A stretch of 63,042 nucleotides of DNA, filler included, from Globobulimina sp. (Eukaryota), in assembly GCA_003354225.1 (NCBI GenBank). It is 22 parts of 22 records of this genome, joined end to end, with 100 filler letters (N's around TTAATTAATTAA, not from the genome) between each part and the next. Parts side by side here need not be neighbours in the genome. Positions count along the whole stretch, not along the records: positions 60,275 to 63,042 come from PIVH01004972.1; 21 more parts are not named here. One strand, written 5' to 3'. The notes below the pieces were generated by a model. It was not told the origin of the DNA. It saw nothing but the letters and a program-made list of their open reading frames with translations, and ran no database searches. Below are positions 18,045-63,042 of this stretch, piece after piece (position 1 is the first letter of the stretch; every line of letters starts with the position of its first letter). The position numbers were made by a program, and so were the translations under genes.

Positions 18045-19997
18045 TTAATCACAACTACATTTCCCGTGGGAGAAGATATGCTTTCCATTGCGATCAAAAC
18101 ATGTAATAGTTTGATTAAAATATTTCGACATAGCAGCAAAAAATGAATGACAATCTTTGCACATTTTGAGTGAAATTGCAATTGAAATATCAATGTTATT
18201 ATTACTTTTTTCATGCAATAATATGGCTAATGCTTTTTTCTCAGAATGGTATTTTAAATGCAATTCACGCGTTTTTTTATTTGTTAGAGATCCAATAAGC
18301 ACTGAATTATCAATTAAATAATTACTTTCTTTCATTAATTGATGAACTTTATCCACTGATTTAAATTTACATTGATGATCAATTCCATTTTGTATAATCC
18401 ATTCTTTTCCATTTAATTCAAACATTGCAATTATATTACTTTCCAATTTTGATTCATTGATAGTTGGTTTTTGCAACAAATCCCACAAATATTTTTGAAA
18501 TTTACTGTCAATATTCTCGCAATTCAAAAATAAGGTTATTACTTCATATAACTGTAAATTATTTATATCAAAATGCATGAATTTATCCTCATCATTATTG
18601 GCAAAAATAATACAATTTCGATTATTCCTTTCCATGTTTATACATTGATTATTAACATAAGATTTGCAAAGAGAACATTGATACAAATACGAATTCGAAT
18701 GAATAATATCTAAAATATGTTGCATTCTTTCATTTCTATTTTCAGATTTAAGTAAAATATTTAATGCAGCAATATCGTGAGTAATTGTGTTATTTCTCAG
18801 TGTGATCTTATTATAAATCAACCACATTTCATTTAATTTATTAACGTTTGCTAAACCTTTTAAAATTTGATGAAATTCAACTGGCGATGCTTGTAACTCA
18901 TTTATCATATTTCTGTCAGCTACGATATCATTTATTAATTTATTAAACATCTCATTACAATGCACATTATCATATTTTGACAATGCTAAAATAGCAATAC
19001 AGTAACACTTTAAATCTGGTTTAACGCCCAATTTATTCACAACTTCATTCCAAACATTATAAATAAATGGAAACGTTTGTTGTTGCTTATGATATTGGTA
19101 ATATTTCGATGTTCTATGAATACAAATAAGTAACAATTCTAATGTCCGACTGTTAAATAACGAGCCAGCAGAATATTTATTGTTATTTAAAATATTTTCG
19201 ACATTCTGAGTCTGTCCCATTCTTTTAAAGTTTTCAAATAATGCTGTTAATGTGTATGGATTTGAGTTATTTCTTGAATTGATACTCACTTTGAAATATT
19301 CGTTGTTATAAAATATCAGCGCTGCCTCAATTGCACCATTATTTATATATCCTTTCATTACTTTTGCAACACTCAATATATCATTGATATTCCTCTCATT
19401 CATTTCATTGTAAATACTGATCATCTCAGAAATGTTCCTTTCGCCCACAAACATTCCATAAAAATCAATCAATATATTTGATAAATGATAATAATCATCA
19501 TTCAGACAAAAGGAATTTTCTTTTTCTTTTCTGACAGCGATTGCAGTATGAATTTCTTTGCCTTTTTCAAAATTACCATTTAAAAGACATGCTTTCATGG
19601 CTGAGATAAAAGTAACAATATTCCGTATGGAAATATCTGTTTCTTCATATAATGACAATGCATTGTCTGCCAATTTATTATCGATCAAAACAGTCATCAT
19701 TGCATTTATTATGATAATATCATTATTATTACAGGACATAAATAGTTTTTGTGCAGTATTGACATCACCAAAATGGCCATAAAACCCAATCAAACACGTT
19801 TTTAATTGAATGGAAACAGAATCGATCAAATGTTCAAAATAATTATGAATCTCTTGCCCTTTTTCAAAATTATTGCATTCAATGCATGCTTTTAATACTA
19901 ACACATTAATTATATCATTATTCAATGTTTTATATTCAAAATAATCATACATTGTTAACATTTGTTGATAACATTTATTATTTAATAAGGTTTGCAG
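18045..19997 (-). CDS. 5'-partial PLS-class PPR protein with C-terminal DYW cytidine-deaminase domain
   Basis: L/S/P-like PPR motifs (VLKACIECNNFEKGQEIH; LIGFYGHFGDVNTAQKLF; INAMMT..ADNALSLYEE; TFISAMKAC..FEKGKEIH). DYW block MKESNYLID..LKYHSEKKALA..SLKMCKDCHSFF..D.NGKHIFSHGKCSCD*. Frame is open to the contig end. Confidence 0.9.
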   Translation of the reverse strand: MQTLLNNKCYQQMLTMYDYFEYKTLNNDIINVLVLKACIECNNFEKGQEIHNYFEHLIDSVSIQLKTCLIGFYGHFGDVNTAQKLFMSCNNNDIIIINAMMTVLIDNKLADNALSLYEETDISIRNIVTFISAMKACLLNGNFEKGKEIHTAIAVRKEKENSFCLNDDYYHLSNILIDFYGMFVGERNISEMISIYNEMNERNINDILSVAKVMKGYINNGAIEAALIFYNNEYFKVSINSRNNSNPYTLTALFENFKRMGQTQNVENILNNNKYSAGSLFNSRTLELLLICIHRTSKYYQYHKQQQTFPFIYNVWNEVVNKLGVKPDLKCYCIAILALSKYDNVHCNEMFNKLINDIVADRNMINELQASPVEFHQILKGLANVNKLNEMWLIYNKITLRNNTITHDIAALNILLKSENRNERMQHILDIIHSNSYLYQCSLCKSYVNNQCINMERNNRNCIIFANNDEDKFMHFDINNLQLYEVITLFLNCENIDSKFQKYLWDLLQKPTINESKLESNIIAMFELNGKEWIIQNGIDHQCKFKSVDKVHQLMKESNYLIDNSVLIGSLTNKKTRELHLKYHSEKKALAILLHEKSNNNIDISIAISLKMCKDCHSFFAAMSKYFNQTITCFDRNGKHIFSHGKCSCD

Positions 19998-22372: not shown

Positions 22373-22442
22373 GGATCGCCTCAGGATTTGAACCTGAATC
22401 TTCTGGCCACCAATTCCAGTGCTCTTCTTGAGCTAAGCGACA
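22373..22442 (-). pseudogene. Degenerate tRNA-like sequence (possible anticodon TGG) or tRNA-derived SINE head
   Basis: The minus strand reads TGTCGCT TA GCTC AAGAA GAGC A CTGG..TTGG..CCAG AAGAT TCAGG TTCAAAT CCTGA GGCGATC. The T-arm/B-box is perfect, but the D-loop is short and lacks GG, and the anticodon arm is imperfect. Confidence 0.55.
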
Positions 22443-58484: not shown

Positions 58485-59969
58485 TCATGGGAGATTATAA
58501 TGTTTTTTGATTGCTTGATTTTGCAAATTTGAAACATAATAAGCATTTTTCCATAAAATAATTTGTTTCATTTTATCACAAGTTACAAATGTATATTGAT
58601 TTAATTTCTTAATTGAAATTATTCGATCAGAATGAAAACTGAATTTATTAATCAATAAACTCTCAGAATCAATACATAAATCATTTACAATATTCTTATT
58701 TTTATTTTTATTTTTATGTTTTTTATTATATGAATCATATAATAGTTCCTGACGAAAACAAGACAACCAAACACCTGTTTTTATTTTATTTAAATTAATC
58801 TTTGTTAAATCCAAAAATTTGATAACATTTTTTTTATTATTTGCAGTAATTAATATTAAATTATTTTTTTCGCCAAACACAGTCATACCAATTATTTCTG
58901 TACTATTATGATATACATTTTTGACGATCGCTTTAACCAAGAATTTAGCGTCAAAAATAACAATGGCATTCGAGAAGGAGACAATAAAGTATTTATCCCC
59001 ACCATTTGGATCAATAAAATGAATAAAACAATTTAATTTTAAATCTTGTGCCTCTGTAATTATTGTCCCAGCGCCTTTCGAATGCGTGGACCACGACGAT
59101 ATATTATCTTCGACATAGTTTATCCGTTCTAAACATTGCGGAAAAGGAAAATCAATTCGCCAGACACATATTAGTCCGTCGTATGAGGCGGTTATAAAAC
59201 GGTCACACGACGACTGGTAAATGTATTTAATTTCGCTTCCATGTTTATTTATTAATTTTATTCGATCGTTCTTTTCAAAATTTACAAAAACGATTTTGCC
59301 ACTCACACATCCAATGATTAATTGTTTTGTATTTGTATTTAAAAATAGCATTTGTGTGATATTTATTTCTGTTTTTATATTGGTTAAACGTAATAATTTT
59401 ACCTCTTCATTTAGAACTGACCAAATCCCAATTTCTCCATTATTTGACGCAGTAATTAATCCGTTGGAAAATATCATTTTGGTGATTGCCGATTTATGAT
59501 TGTTAAATATTGAAATACAGTGTATATCACCACTTATATCGAGATGCCATGCTCGCAATGTATGATCCAATGAGGCAGAGATTAATAATGAATCAATCAC
59601 TAATAAACATAATATTGGAGCAGTGTGACCAGAGAGTACATCTAATAATAACCCATTATCTATGGACCAAATTAATATTAAACAATCATCCGCCGAGGAG
59701 GCAAACCTATTTTCGTCAACGCGACATAAACAACGCACAATATTACTGTGTCCGGATAAGTATTGGATTTGGATGTTATTTTTGAGTTTAAATGGCGAAA
59801 TATCCTTATTAGTGTCAGTATTATCACTATCATTATTGTTATCCTTTGGATCTGATGTTTTTTCGTCATCACTATTATTATCAATACTATTATTGCCACT
59901 ATTACCCATTCCAAAGAAAGAGAATGGATTCAACGACGCCAAACTACGTCTTCGCTTTTTGCCAGACAT
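58485..59969 (-). CDS. WD40-repeat protein, WDR41-like
   Basis: LSGHSNIVRCL.RVDENRFASSADD..ILIW..NG..L..LSGHT.PI resembles the WDR41 N-terminal repeats; further GH/WD-like repeats follow. ATG at 59969. Confidence 0.75.
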   Translation of the reverse strand: MSGKKRRRSLASLNPFSFFGMGNSGNNSIDNNSDDEKTSDPKDNNNDSDNTDTNKDISPFKLKNNIQIQYLSGHSNIVRCLCRVDENRFASSADDCLILIWSIDNGLLLDVLSGHTAPILCLLVIDSLLISASLDHTLRAWHLDISGDIHCISIFNNHKSAITKMIFSNGLITASNNGEIGIWSVLNEEVKLLRLTNIKTEINITQMLFLNTNTKQLIIGCVSGKIVFVNFEKNDRIKLINKHGSEIKYIYQSSCDRFITASYDGLICVWRIDFPFPQCLERINYVEDNISSWSTHSKGAGTIITEAQDLKLNCFIHFIDPNGGDKYFIVSFSNAIVIFDAKFLVKAIVKNVYHNSTEIIGMTVFGEKNNLILITANNKKNVIKFLDLTKINLNKIKTGVWLSCFRQELLYDSYNKKHKNKNKNKNIVNDLCIDSESLLINKFSFHSDRIISIKKLNQYTFVTCDKMKQIILWKNAYYVSNLQNQAIKKHYNLP

Positions 59970-60274
59970 TGAACGTGAAGCGAAAACTTTTTTAAGTGTA
60001 AATAAATATATATATAAAAATTCAATACAGTCGTAACTAAGCCAAAAAGTGCAATGGATATAGTTAGATTTGATTATGAAGACACAGTAGAACATGTAAT
60101 GAAAACACATAAACGAAAGGTATCTCAATTAGCATCATTAGAACAAGAATTGGGTTTATATTTTGATGAAGAAGNNNNNNNNNNNNNNNNNNNNNNNNNN
60201 NNNNNNNNNNNNNNNNNNTTAATTAATTAANNNNNNNNNNNNNNNNNNNNNNNNNNNNNNNNNNNNNNNNNNNN

Positions 60275-60634
60275 CAAACGTTTTGCTATTTGATAAATTG
60301 TACTTGGAACGAAATTTGCTGCGTCTAATTCAAGCATACAATCTGCGAATAAAATATACCGTGTGTCACAGCTGATGTTGTTTAAAGTTCCATAAATCCG
60401 GCCAAAATTAAAATGTTTTGCATGACTCATTTGACATGACAAAATAAATTGACTATTTTTGCATATAATATTAACGTTTCGTAACTTGCAATATTGTTTA
60501 ATATCTATCTCTTTCAAAAGTTTCAATAATTCCCAAACATTTTGTTTGGTTCGAGCAATAAATGTTTTTCCAACTAAGCCTGACTGTACTTTGCATAATG
60601 ATGTTTCCATTGATGTTTTCATTGATGTTTTCAT
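60275..60634 (-). CDS. 3'-partial hypothetical ORF divergent from the Rep-like gene
   Basis: ATG-initiated, intronless and open into the gap; begins with MKTS repeats. Confidence 0.4.
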
Positions 60635-60749
60635 TAATCGATAATCTAAAGCTATTAAAAATAAAAAAAGTACTTATTTCATAATATGAGTGATTATGAG
60701 AAATTATTAATTAAGTACTTTTTCTTTTAATTATATTATATTATTGTTT

Positions 60750-62267
60750 ATGGCATATAATATGACCCAACTACATTATTACACGCAAGAAGAGAAGGAA
60801 TATATGTTAAACAACACGCTAAACACACAAAATTCATATAACACACAAAATTCGTATGGTTATGGCCCCAATAGGCATAATTTCAACTGTGCCTCTCAAC
60901 GTTTTGATCCGTTACAACCGCATCCGTTTCAACAGCGTTTAAGGCAACGAATATTATCTCGACCACCTCCTAGAATTTTATCTCAACCTCCTCCTAGAAT
61001 TTTATCTCAACCACCTATAGTTTTACCAGTTCAAGGGCACCAACCGCGAGTACAGGGAATATTTTCACAACCTGTAATAAATAGAGAACGACCTCAACAA
61101 CGCCCTTTGTCTTTGTCGCAACCGTTATCCCATATTTCTGTCAATAAGTTTAATTATTTGACTCTGTTATTAGGTGTCAAAATAAGACGATATTTCCAAT
61201 TTAATTGTACACAGAAACCATTGTTTAAAGAATTTAAATTGTCAGAGCTGGCTGTGACATCTGGGGATGTTTTTTACAGTGGAATTGGTAAAGTTATGTC
61301 TGAAAGCAGTGCTATTGATATATGGCAACAAATATTCCACTCAGACACTGCAGAAGATTGCTTTATCAAACCAATAAAATCAAAGACTTATAAAAATATA
61401 TTAAAAACAATTGAAAATGAAGAAAATATCGAATTATTTGGAGAGTTAAAATGTGATATAATATTTGGAGATAACAAAGAAACGTGGGATTTATGTCATG
61501 ACCATATAAAAAATGGAATATTTGTGGAAGAATTGACACAAGAACAGTTTATGAAAAAATATTGCTCCGAAACAGGTACAATTGGTTATGAGTGTTGGAT
61601 GATGAAAAAAAAAAAAATAGACGACATTTATGAAAAATTAACTAACGACTATAAAATAGACGAAGAAGAAGAAGCGTTAGCAAAAGCTTTGGATTATATT
61701 AATAATATTATTAGGGATAACGACGAGGATTATTTATATTTAAAACAGTTAACTTATCTTTGCGTCCAACGCCATCATCGGAAAATGTTTTGGGTCTTTG
61801 ATAAAAACGGTGAGAAATTTAAGTCCTCACTTTGCAAAGGTCTAAAAGCAATATTGGGAAACGACATATATGTATTGACACATTTTACTGATATGGATAA
61901 TTTATGTAATTTAATCAAAAAAAATCCATACAAAAAAGTATTATTAATTGACTTACCAAAAAATGGATCAAAATTAATTGTTCCTACAGTAGTGGAGCAA
62001 CTGAAAAATGGATATTTAACCAGTACAAAGTATCGCGGATGCAACGCAATTTCAAAGCCTTTGGCTATAATATTTTTTTCAAACGAAGAAGCTCCAAAAG
62101 ACTCGTTTACTAAAAATCGTTTATATGAGTTAGAAATAGAAGACAATCACATAAAAATGAACGATAATGATTTAATTGAAACATGTCCGGATATTCCCAA
62201 TGATGATGAATTCCATGGCTTGACTTTGCAACAAGTAGTTACAAAATATAATAAATTGAGAAGATAA
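60750..62267 (+). mobile_element. rep: CRESS-DNA-virus-like replication protein (SF3 helicase, nanovirus/alphasatellite-like C-terminus); virus or endogenous viral element
   Basis: RKMFWVFDKNGEKFKS (Walker A region), LLIDLPK (Walker B), EQLKNG..STKY (B'), IIFFSN (C) and KNRL (Arg finger) are in the order seen in nanovirus-type Reps. Intronless. Confidence 0.7.
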
Positions 62268-62270
62268 GTT

Positions 62271-62441
62271 ATTTTTGAGTCACTAAGTGAGTGACAGACT
62301 GTTCTATGTTTTTATTCCTTGCTAACAATTTTTGAGTCACTAAGTGAGTGACAGACTGTTTATATTCCAAATCGTATCAATTTATGTGTGCTCCAAATCG
62401 TATCAATTATATTCCAAATCAAACTCCAAATCGTATCAATT
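62271..62441 (+). repeat. Two 33-nt direct repeats with internal hairpin plus three 17-nt direct repeats
   Basis: ATTTTTGAGTCACTAAGTGAGTGACAGACTGTT at 62271-62303 and 62328-62360; TCCAAATCGTATCAATT at 62366, 62392 and 62425. Confidence 0.92.
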
Positions 62442-63042
62442 CCATTGCGCTGCATCCACTGCTCTCAAACTCATCATTTTACCTTTAATATTATATAAAA
62501 ATTACAAACAAAATAAAAAACAAACATAATTTTACTTAATTTTAATGTGTATTAATGGTGTTTGGTAACACCACCAGAAAATGTATGATTGTTGATAGCC
62601 AATACAGGCATTTAAAGGGAACCTGAATTGGCATATTTTCATTCAATTTGTTTGTGTGTTTTGCGTATTTTCATTGTGTCTGTTATGCGGTGTTTGTGTG
62701 TGTATCAATAAGTGAGTGCTGAATATGTGACATGCGGATCTATGGAGTTGCAAATGCTTTGATTATGCGCCAAATCGCAATGCGGCGCTCTGTGCAAAAC
62801 AACCAAAACAAAATAACCAAAACAAAATATATATATAAAAATTAACTGAGTTTGGATTATTAATCCAATGTAAAAGAATGCAGGATTGGTTTGTGTTGAT
62901 TTATGATCGGCGAGGACCAATACAAGGCATTAAAAAGAACCTGGCGGCACATCGACATCATCAAAATTTGCGATTTTGCGTATGAAAATATGTGGATAAT
63001 ATCTATGATTTTATGCTCCAAACCAGGTATTAATAAAACCTG

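Follow-up and report, generated by a model that had tools for sequence, protein, structure and literature searches.

A candidate endogenous or domesticated Rep-derived gene with an altered P-loop in a Globobulimina assembly

The Rep proteins of CRESS viruses are composed of an HUH nuclease, an oligomerisation domain and an SF3 helicase, and the replication origin of these viruses is marked by a nonanucleotide with a NANTATTAC-like consensus in the loop of a hairpin. Captured Reps are also carried by giant viruses. In the sections of Liu et al. 2011 (PMC3198968) drawn on here, endogenous Rep-like genes are described from Entamoeba, Giardia, Blastocystis, fungi and plants, and some of them are argued to be conserved, expressed and co-opted. 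Capture of Rep genes in protists is already known, and among larger viruses the avipoxvirus Rep was derived from draupnirviruses, as given in the excerpted part of PMC10193959. Two further groups of proteins related to Rep belong to mobile elements: the transposases of Replitrons contain an HUH(Q)/Y1 nuclease but lack a helicase, and in Helitrons a two-tyrosine (Y2) HUH nuclease is fused to an SF1B helicase (both from the excerpted part of PMC10288648).

The window analysed here, i.e. the whole stretch of 63,042 nt from a Globobulimina sp. assembly (GCA_003354225.1), consists of 22 chained contigs, unrelated to one another and each about 2.77 kb long, and the gene of interest (ORF1) is located on the last of them, which is 2768 nt long. 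Position 60275, given as the left end of the locus in the preliminary description, is the first contig base after an artificial N44-TTAATTAATTAA-N44 linker; it is a contig edge that cuts a minus-strand ORF and not a biological boundary. Similarly, the WD40 gene found just upstream in the window (58485-60128) sits on a separate contig. The open frame of ORF1 extends from 60744 (a TTG) to 62267 with the first ATG at 60750, and the 505 aa encoded from this ATG agree with the frame of about 500 codons reported initially. The features of the contig were the following.

60275-60634, minus strand: ORF2, an open frame of 120 codons from the ATG at 60634 that runs off the contig start
60635-60749, no strand: A+T-rich spacer of 115 nt between the divergent ORFs, from the sequence
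60750-62264 (62267 with the stop), plus strand: ORF1, a predicted Rep-derived protein of 505 aa with the homologues P0001 and P0002
60750-61124, plus strand: N-terminal extension of ORF1 (residues 1-125), Q/P/N-rich and of low complexity, from sequence, repeats and pLDDT
61125-61604, plus strand: middle region (residues 126-285), mixed alpha/beta, conserved with P0001 and in the position of the Rep nuclease domain
61605-62255, plus strand: helical linker and SF3 (AAA+) helicase module (residues ~286-502), from phmmer, hhalign, AF2 and Foldseek
61809-61826, plus strand: Walker A, GEKFKS (G354-S359), from the alignment with 147 CRESS Reps
61950-61952, plus strand: Walker B Asp, D401, from the same alignment
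62082-62084, plus strand: motif C Asn, N445, from the same alignment
62118-62120, plus strand: Arg finger, R457, from the same alignment
62271-62454, no strand: repeats just 3' of the ORF1 stop, from the repeat search and folding (z -1.93)
62328-63042, no strand: 3' non-coding part, shared among runs of the same sample

Descent of the helicase half of ORF1 from a CRESS-type Rep is strongly supported by sequence comparisons and predicted structures. When ORF1 was compared by phmmer with 1.84 billion representatives, 357 matches were obtained at E<=1e-3, the best distant match having an E-value of 2.1e-10, and all 148 matches listed beyond the two close homologues fell on residues ~262-502. The 60 best distant matches were scanned with Pfam (E<=1e-3) and Viral_Rep was present in 39 and RNA_helicase in 5 of them, while 19 had none of the five families found; the names of ten of the best distant matches were uninformative, and four members of one cluster were called 'hypothetical protein'. 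Alignment of the three-member family (ORF1, P0001 and P0002) to 60 Reps with hhalign gave a probability of 99.4% and E 1.4e-21 over residues 269-472. The helicase was modelled by AF2 with pLDDT >90 and the best Foldseek matches in BFVD were CRESS Reps (E down to 3.4e-12), every named row among the 50 matches listed being annotated as a Rep or replication protein, in nearly all cases from a CRESS-type virus. In a Foldseek search of PDB the SF3 helicases headed the list, and the neighbours of ORF1 in the ESM Atlas were Cressdnaviricota clusters (score 0.94). The likeness of the C-terminal part to the SF3 helicase of CRESS Reps, noticed from the DNA in the first place, is upheld by phmmer, the Pfam scan and hhalign. 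A more specific affinity to nanoviruses and alphasatellites did not emerge, with unclassified CRESS and crucivirus Reps as best viral folds and a nanovirus master Rep only at rank 37 in BFVD. Searches with the single ORF1 sequence gave nothing meaningful in Pfam (best E 0.28), PHROGs (0.36) and PDB sequences (0.36), tblastn gave no match in a phage collection, and the profile of the three-member family had no match among PDB sequences at E<=1.

Several blocks specific to CRESS Reps were recognised in ORF1, namely IxW..D..G, D.P[RK], E..KNG...S.KY, [FS][AS]N..P and the Arg finger block (NR in ORF1 versus DRW in Reps). The P-loop Lys and Ser, the Walker B Asp, E416, the motif C Asn and the Arg finger are all kept, and the corresponding residues are conserved in the 147 aligned Reps as K in 147, S/T in 147, D in 141, E in 147, N in 146 and R in 142. 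The canonical Walker A (G-x-x-G-K-[ST] within GxxxxGK[ST]) is not present in ORF1. As the preliminary description had pointed out, it is altered, and the alignment places the change at F357 of GEKFKS, where the CRESS Reps have G in 146/147 cases and D in 1/147. Phe occupies this site in all three family members (GEKFKS in ORF1, GERFKT in P0001 and GETFKT in P0002).

The middle region was examined for the nuclease motifs of Rep. A Pfam search of ORF1 gave no Viral_Rep match at E<=1, and the HUH/HUQ motif II is absent, the aligned site reading ELF, QLL and -LQ in the three family members. Three short stretches had been suggested as HUH candidates; only one of them, KKYCSE, was placed on Rep motif III by both hhalign and MAFFT, whereas motif II aligned to ELFGEL and not to IWQQ. 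Y271 within KKYCSE aligned to the motif III Tyr in hhalign, but the Lys of YxxK is replaced by E in ORF1, the motif reads YVSD in P0002 and it falls in a 6-residue gap in P0001, so that the Tyr motif appears not to be conserved. Taken singly these placements are without statistical support, given that hhalign of the N-terminal domain against the nuclease part of the 60 Reps yielded a probability of 0.5% and E 0.12, and the AF2 models of the middle region (pLDDT 24-64 with 150 sequences, mean 47 with 3 sequences) were too low in confidence for a fold search. As judged from the alignments, the HUH/HUQ and catalytic Tyr motifs are absent or not conserved across the three family members; the N-terminal domain of ORF1 could conceivably be a very divergent but active nuclease.

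The Q/P-rich N-terminus with PPRILSQ repeats was present as described, the repeats being encoded by three tandem 24-nt units at 60949-61020, and a second tandem repeat (2 x 18 nt) was found at 60822-60857. Where modelled, this extension had AF2 pLDDT <40, and it is weakly conserved compared to P0001, which has repeats of its own.

Close relatives of ORF1 were only two, both in a foraminifer proteome set: P0001 (568 aa, phmmer E 7e-99, 40% identity over 473 columns) and P0002 (281 aa, phmmer E 2e-63, 40-41% identity to ORF1). In the helicase tree ORF1 and these two proteins formed a clade (support 1.0) on a stem that is the longest internal branch of that tree (1.25 compared to a median of 0.14). 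Open homologues with the same derived motifs are present in a eukaryote gene set that may not be pure; it may derive from field-collected specimens, in which case P0001 and P0002 might come from an associated virus or from a different organism. Among the papers listed in literature searches by foraminiferan names, none reported Rep genes in foraminifera.

The explanation that accounts best for these data, and that we consider fairly probable, is that ORF1 is a descendant of a CRESS Rep residing in the protist genome or in a non-canonical resident element, and that it belongs to a small conserved family. Most likely it is an endogenous or domesticated Rep-derived gene, and its features are those of a captured viral gene rather more than those of a working virus. 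Two alternatives had been offered at the outset, a new CRESS virus and a domesticated Rep with degenerate motifs. The second fits better because the nuclease motifs are unconserved, the P-loop is conserved among proteins with about 40% identity and the only close relatives are found in a eukaryote set, and also because the flanks do not wrap around, neither a capsid gene nor a nonanucleotide hairpin was found, and the composition agrees with that of the other contigs; the new virus obtained no positive support. The GC content of ORF1 (0.319) and its GC3 (0.259) are within the range of the other long ORFs in the window, eukaryote-type genes are found on the other contigs, and the base composition matches these contigs and is host-like. 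Host residence is deduced from indirect signs, because ORF1 lies on a short contig (2768 nt) that is flanked in the window by other contigs. Among the public runs listed, no RNA run contained the ORF1 stretch.

Loss of the nuclease motifs would mean that the protein no longer nicks an origin, and rolling-circle replication could then not be started by the ORF1 protein alone. The protein has gained a long disordered Q/P-rich extension N-terminally. It would probably still assemble into the kind of ring that is typical of SF3 helicases, and DNA binding has probably been kept and nucleotide binding perhaps. The protein might have a host function, or it might act as a defective Rep subunit that mixes into the rings of incoming CRESS viruses. 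The G-to-F change conserved in the P-loop, together with the very long stem, suggests that the protein took on a different function and then came under constraint, rather than decaying, and since the derived motifs are common to members that are only ~40% identical, an old constrained divergence is suggested and not a recent insertion.

The strongest competing explanation, although unlikely, is that ORF1 is the Rep gene of a protist virus or episome that is CRESS-like, highly divergent and still living, with a genome larger than the contig, in which the nuclease motifs have diverged beyond recognition or the nuclease has been replaced by a new N-terminal domain, and in which ORF2 is the start of a structural gene. 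The layout is compatible with this idea, given that ORF1 and ORF2 are both intronless and, as described in the preliminary account, ORF2 points away across a 115-nt gap as a minus-strand frame from 60634. The spacer contains an imperfect 33-nt inverted repeat (60653-60685/60703-60735) with a folding z of -2.26, 3 of 200 shuffles being as stable. Just 3' of ORF1 there are two identical copies of a 33-nt repeat (62271-62303 and 62328-62360), each with a 6-bp/5-nt hairpin (GTCACT-AAGTG-AGTGAC), followed by three copies of the 17-nt iteron-like TCCAAATCGTATCAATT at 62366-62454. Layout, repeats and lack of introns would suit a viral or episomal genome of >3.7 kb. Three other runs of the same sample also contain the 3' non-coding part at 62328-63042, there lacking ORF1 and a 57-nt segment (62790-62846), and this part could be likened to the common region that multipartite ssDNA viruses have. 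Finally, the helicase relatives outside the family are all Reps of viral or metagenomic origin, encoded on contigs of 1-4.6 kb; a scan of JGI metagenomes gave 352 pattern matches, of which 9 were confirmed as distant loci (25-30% identity, contigs of 1.7-3.6 kb). In IMG/VR, a scan with the family alignment resulted in 244 pattern matches and no confirmed relative, which speaks against a virus.

A living virus is also disfavoured by the absence of HUH/HUQ with the candidate Tyr missing in P0001, by the loss of the P-loop glycine, by the host-like composition and by the 125-residue low-complexity extension, which is unusual for compact ssDNA genomes. The role of an ambisense capsid partner that had been considered for ORF2 was not substantiated. 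In its 120 codons, which are cut by the contig edge, neither a capsid-like protein nor an Arg-rich N-terminus was recognised; three 12-nt repeats (MKTS MKTS METS) lie at the 5' end. The best Pfam match was DUF3911 (E 0.016), which fails the family cut-off, no PHROGs family and no homologue among longer and similar-length proteins was found, the ESM Atlas gave only unnamed clusters with a recognition value under the usual level, and matches to PDB sequences had E >= 0.74. ORF2 is therefore regarded as a putative, unproven gene without detectable relatives. The canonical nonanucleotide was not found in any hairpin loop of the contig, the spacer and 3' hairpins having other loops; the sole loose match (60775-60782) lies inside ORF1 without a stem, and in the window as a whole the motif occurs at chance level (31 occurrences, a count attained by 7 of 100 shuffles, versus 23.3 expected). 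Circularity, which had been proposed as a check, was not borne out: the contig has no terminal overlap or redundancy, the public contig of run X1 covering 60275-60532 continues 888 nt to the left with bases that are absent from the stretch, and on the right a public contig extends 71 nt past 63042, no piece mapping back onto the stretch. A small covalently closed circle thus has no support, as both flanks extend without wrap-around, and a circle of >3.7 kb stays compatible with these data. Closure of the contig on itself, which would keep the minus-strand ORF in frame to 180 aa, was rejected because of the 888 additional bases to the left of 60275.

A more speculative proposal, less probable than a living virus, is that a nuclease-dead Rep family with the P-loop G-E-x-F-K-[ST] has long been kept as a cellular factor in a protist lineage that would include the foraminifera. 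The most attractive cellular role would be that of a dominant-negative 'poison subunit' entering the Rep rings of infecting CRESS viruses. In a bolder version ORF1 would belong to an unconventional ssDNA element, multipartite or larger, whose Rep initiates by means of an N-terminal domain that is new and not of HUH type, the 3' region seen alone in other runs being common to its segments.

Less probable again is that ORF1 is a gene of a larger resident mobile or viral element that captured a CRESS Rep, e.g. a giant-virus or polinton-like element that has integrated, or a Rep-helicase transposon not described before. The DNA of the contig has a high A+T content, no introns and a dense arrangement of genes with short spacers, which would fit such an element, and a 'putative rep protein' of Hyperionvirus was match 17 in BFVD. 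The 3' flank behaves as a repeat, and several branch points in run X1 suggest that this part is a dispersed or shared repeat. ORF1 itself, on the other hand, was on a single path of even depth in run X1 with no variant copies, there was no copy of it on the other 21 contigs of the window (only two short matches, 30 nt and 19 nt long, as may arise by chance), the ends of the contig revealed no terminal repeats, and Replitrons and Helitrons do not fit an SF3 protein without HUH. That ORF1 encodes a cellular AAA+ ATPase without any relation to viruses, with a Rep likeness that is convergent or of the fold only, is highly improbable and effectively refuted by phmmer, the Pfam scan of the matches and hhalign: this check, set out beforehand, came out for Rep in the profile searches, with evidence specific to CRESS Reps including the Rep-specific blocks and with the Rep nuclease family on 39/60 of the best matches scanned (19/60 without any of the five families found), whereas the PDB-wide structural search tied viral SF3 helicases with cellular AAA+ ATPases at Z 8-9 (vaccinia D5 9.0; ORC, TnsC, RuvB and ClpB 8.1-8.7, above PCV2 Rep at 7.3).

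What is distinctive about the Rep-derived family is the combination of an otherwise intact helicase, a P-loop Gly replaced by Phe in every member and lost nuclease motifs, and also that the family is common to the Globobulimina assembly and a foraminifer data set at only ~40% identity. If it is host-resident, it would suggest that CRESS viruses have long been associated with this protist group, and it would offer a testable example of how a viral replication protein can acquire a different use. Were the poison-subunit reading true, ORF1 would be a virus-derived immunity gene in a unicellular eukaryote; if ORF1 is viral, it would be a Rep unable to work in the textbook way.

Compared to Replitrons and Helitrons, as described in the excerpted part of PMC10288648, ORF1 likewise represents a Rep-related protein, probably resident in a protist genome, with hairpins near the ends, but it is the reverse case, having an SF3 helicase and no recognisable nuclease motifs. 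It shares with the captured Reps of large DNA viruses (avipoxvirus, Hyperionvirus) that a CRESS Rep gene is found outside a CRESS genome, and differs from them in that its contig is without any other hallmark gene of giant viruses or poxviruses. With the CRESS Reps themselves (Cressdnaviricota; PF02407, PF00910) the helicase module is homologous and collinear, and the Walker A Lys-Ser, D.P[RK], the E..KNG...STKY hairpin block, [FS][AS]N..P and the Arg finger are held in common, with a helical linker preceding the helicase where the oligomerisation domain of Rep lies. ORF1 differs by the P-loop Phe, by lacking HUH/HUQ and a conserved YxxK, and by its size of 505 aa instead of the usual 260-350, with ~125 extra disordered residues at the N-terminus and ~45 extra at the C-terminus; a circular genome, an origin and a capsid gene, which belong to CRESS viruses, were not found with it on the 2768-nt contig. 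The endogenous Rep-like genes are likewise Rep-derived open frames in protist-type assemblies, as is ORF1 with its relatives in a eukaryote proteome set. Among the cases given in the excerpted part of PMC3198968 none is rhizarian or foraminiferan, and the ORF1 family is set apart from those genes by combining loss of the nuclease motifs with the G-to-F P-loop in members that are ~40% identical.

The 505-aa protein encoded by ORF1, on the plus strand of the last contig, is probably the product of a resident, nuclease-dead, Rep-derived gene. A captured or domesticated gene is the favoured reading and a virus is unsupported. The features of the window that bear on this are:

60744-62267, plus strand: ORF1, open frame with first ATG at 60750, 505 aa
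ORF1 residues 1 to ~125, plus strand: Q/P/N-rich N-terminal extension
60822-60857: tandem repeat of 2 x 18 nt in this extension
60949-61020: tandem repeat of 3 x 24 nt (PPRILSQ) in this extension
61809-61826, plus strand: Walker A of ORF1, G354-E-K-F-K-S359
60634 (ATG) to contig edge at 60275, minus strand: ORF2, 120 codons
within 62271-62454, directly 3' of the ORF1 stop: 33-nt repeat in two identical copies, both containing the 6-bp/5-nt hairpin GTCACT-AAGTG-AGTGAC
within 62271-62454, after the 33-nt repeats: three 17-nt repeats, TCCAAATCGTATCAATT
58485-60128: WD40 gene, on a separate contig from ORF1

The preliminary description of the open frame, the Q/P-rich repeats, the altered Walker A, the divergent ORF and the 115 nt between the two start codons was accurate. 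The last contig comprises 2768 nt (60275-63042, 60275 being its first base) with a GC content of 0.312. The window is not a single molecule, its 22 stretches of 2768-2772 bases being arranged from longest to shortest and separated by linkers of 44 N, TTAATTAATTAA and 44 N (e.g. 60175-60274). Given that contigs were joined, adjacency across a linker is artificial for every finding in the window, and the WD40 gene, located on another contig, is therefore uninformative on ORF1 linkage. On the remaining contigs there are long, unbroken ORFs of a eukaryotic kind (SNF2 helicase, RING finger, DYW deaminase, alpha-galactosidase A, M28 peptidase and methyltransferase). A DYW-type nucleic-acid deaminase domain (E = 2.1e-12), which outside plants occurs patchily in protists, was found at the end of a 638-aa ORF (18048-19961, minus strand), and the sole Rfam match in the window was a tRNA (22373-22442, minus strand; 31.3 bits, gathering score 29). 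In contig 17 (45933-48701) a 340-aa ORF with a GC content of 0.595 adjoins a 339-aa ORF with 0.294, and contigs 1, 9, 11 and 13 have a GC3 of 0.46-0.61, most contigs having 0.23-0.41; this heterogeneous composition may reflect mixed origin.

Direct family searches with ORF1 failed (best E = 0.28 in Pfam, 0.36 in PHROGs and 0.36 against PDB sequences). phmmer, run exhaustively against 1.84 billion cluster representatives, returned 357 proteins at E<=1e-3, only two of them close relatives: P0001 (568 aa, E = 7.3e-99; BLASTP identity to ORF1 40% over 473 columns) and P0002 (281 aa, E = 2.0e-63), which appears to be a C-terminal fragment. Both are in a proteome set whose label names the foraminifer Bolivina argentea, presumably derived from the published field-specimen libraries of this species. 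According to the accessible text of PMC8153729 those libraries were poly(A)-selected and the specimens were collected in the field, and such material can contain other organisms too. For the remainder of the best 150 of the 357 matches, the alignment was confined to ORF1 residues ~262-502, and most distant matches, among those listed, are 260-350 aa long. Pfam assigned Viral_Rep to 39, RNA_helicase to 5 and Gemini_AL1 to 2 of the 60 top distant matches (P0003-P0062), whose consensus contains the classical motifs of Reps: FT.NN, HLQG, YC.K, GN.GKS, D.PR, IE..KNG...S.KY, FAN..P and DRW. A profile of the three family members (ORF1, P0001 and P0002) matched a profile of 60 Reps of ordinary length (hhalign, probability 99.4%, E = 1.4e-21, query residues 269-472), and the ESM Atlas neighbours of ORF1 were Cressdnaviricota clusters (score 0.94, 204-206 of 256 features in common). 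The profile comparison and the Viral_Rep assignments bear out the SF3 helicase of CRESS Rep type proposed earlier, and the helicase half securely traces back to a Rep of CRESS type. Some of the best distant helicase matches are unusually long (P0003, 583 aa; P0007, 539 aa; P0004, 412 aa; contigs of 2.5-4 kb), P0003 has no Pfam family at E<=1e-3, and these three may likewise be Rep-helicase proteins of an atypical kind.

From an alignment of 150 sequences, AlphaFold2 modelled ORF1 residues ~289-502 with pLDDT >90. In a Foldseek comparison of this model with the PDB, SF3 helicases came top (E about 1e-4; AAV2 Rep40/Rep68, NrS-1, MPXV E5, papillomavirus E1 and SV40 large T), and a PDB-wide VIA search gave Z = 9.0 for vaccinia D5 and 7.3 for the PCV2 Rep ATPase, with many cellular AAA+ proteins level at Z = 8-8.7. 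Given this tie, structure alone indicates an AAA+/SF3 fold only. Against predicted viral structures E values went down to 3.4e-12, and the named rows among the best 50 matches were Rep or replication proteins, nearly all from CRESS-type viruses, including crucivirus Reps and a porprismacovirus Rep. A nanovirus master Rep was at rank 37 of these BFVD fold matches, and the specific nanovirus/alphasatellite affinity originally suggested did not emerge.

Viral_Rep in Pfam did not match ORF1. In MAFFT and hhalign alignments motif II (HLQG) is aligned with ELFGEL in ORF1 and with QLLGDL and -LQGEL in its two homologues, which means that the His that binds metal has been lost, and motif III (YC.K) is aligned with KKYCSE in ORF1, YVSD in P0002 and a six-residue gap in P0001. 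Residues 126-290 alone gave no significant match to the Rep nuclease part (probability 0.5%, E = 0.12), and two AlphaFold2 attempts were of low confidence there (pLDDT 24-64 in one, a mean of 47 in the other). Judging from the sequences, this family has not conserved the defining residues of an active HUH nuclease. The residue preceding the P-loop Lys is G in 146/147 and D in 1/147 of the distant Reps in the 150-row alignment, versus F in each member of the family (GEKFKS, GERFKT and GETFKT), so that the altered Walker A holds throughout the family; the other ATPase residues (K358, S359, D401, E416, N445 and R457) are retained in ORF1. Placement in a Rep phylogeny (FastTree, helicase columns, 150/150 rows retained) united the three members in one clade with a support of 1.0, and no internal branch of the tree is longer than the one bearing this clade (1.25, median 0.14). 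That the F-containing P-loop is kept across members of ~40% identity speaks against decay and for a function that has changed and is under constraint.

The protein combines a disordered N-terminal extension with an SF3 helicase module possessing all catalytic residues but the P-loop glycine. With nuclease residues not conserved, origin nicking would be lost and rolling-circle replication could not be started. Ring assembly is probably retained via a helical linker and the AAA+ core, and a DNA-directed role might lie in a host function or in acting as a poison within the Rep rings that infecting relatives form.

It is unlikely that ORF1 instead belongs to a virus or episome that is alive but non-canonical. 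Features that could be counted in favour of such an element are the arrangement of the two genes as a divergent pair, the absence of introns and the hairpin-bearing 33-nt repeats just past the ORF1 stop, followed by 17-nt repeats in a layout that looks iteron-like. Several results go against a small circular genome. The contig has neither a terminal overlap nor a terminal inverted repeat. In the one run that contains 97% of the sampled words, the last 258 bases of a 1146-nt public contig are 60275-60532, so the DNA runs on 888 nt leftward, and on the right a contig from another run extends 71 nt past 63042. The check for circularity thus gave no wrap-back, and since no extension piece maps back on the stretch the molecule must span some 3.7 kb or more, which excludes a circle of 2768 nt. 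Joining the contig ends would produce an in-frame minus-strand ORF of 180 aa (60275-60634 + 62860-63042, with a 60-codon open end), which was rejected given the 888-nt left extension. A loose nonanucleotide was found once in the contig, stemless and inside ORF1, and is at chance level across the window (31 found, 23.3 expected; at least 31 in 7/100 shuffles); the inverted repeat in the spacer is weak (z = -2.26; 3/200 shuffles fold equally well). Pfam, PHROGs, homologue, ESM Atlas and PDB sequence searches gave no family, relative or fold lead for ORF2, whose N-terminus is not Arg-rich, and it could conceivably still be the start of a capsid gene, cut after 120 codons. The GC content (0.319) and GC3 (0.259) of ORF1 fall among the values spanned by the remaining long ORFs in the window (GC3 0.23-0.64, most 0.23-0.41), a scan of IMG/VR with the family gave no relative, and a JGI metagenome scan gave nine Reps only, all distant (25-30% identity).

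The 3' non-coding region 62328-63042, which could likewise be counted in favour of a virus or episome, occurs without ORF1 in three other runs from the same sample. In all three it lacks 57 nt (62790-62846) over a CAAAATAACCAAAA repeat, and in the main run it branches at several points. This behaviour fits a dispersed host repeat; alternatively, the region could be common to segments of a multipartite element. Of the two origins offered in the preliminary description, a domesticated Rep is favoured, its nuclease residues not being conserved, whereas for a new CRESS virus neither a small circle nor an origin motif above chance was found. More doubtful still is that ORF1 is part of a larger mobile or giant-virus-like element, and an unrelated cellular ATPase is scarcely credible beside the profile match to Reps.

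No report of Rep genes in foraminifera was found in the literature searched (foraminifera/CRESS/Rep; Reticulomyxa with circovirus or nanovirus), in which supplementary tables could list cases, and foraminifera are merely named as possible hosts in the accessible part of a benthic ssDNA study (PMC11128263). Rep-like genes are described in the genomes of the protists Entamoeba, Giardia and Blastocystis, with conservation and co-option of some as a published idea (PMC3198968, in the part consulted). As outlined in the accessible text of PMC10288648, Replitrons have an HUH nuclease without a helicase, and Helitrons a Y2 nuclease with an SF1B helicase; neither matches ORF1, because their make-up differs from an SF3 helicase without conserved nuclease residues.
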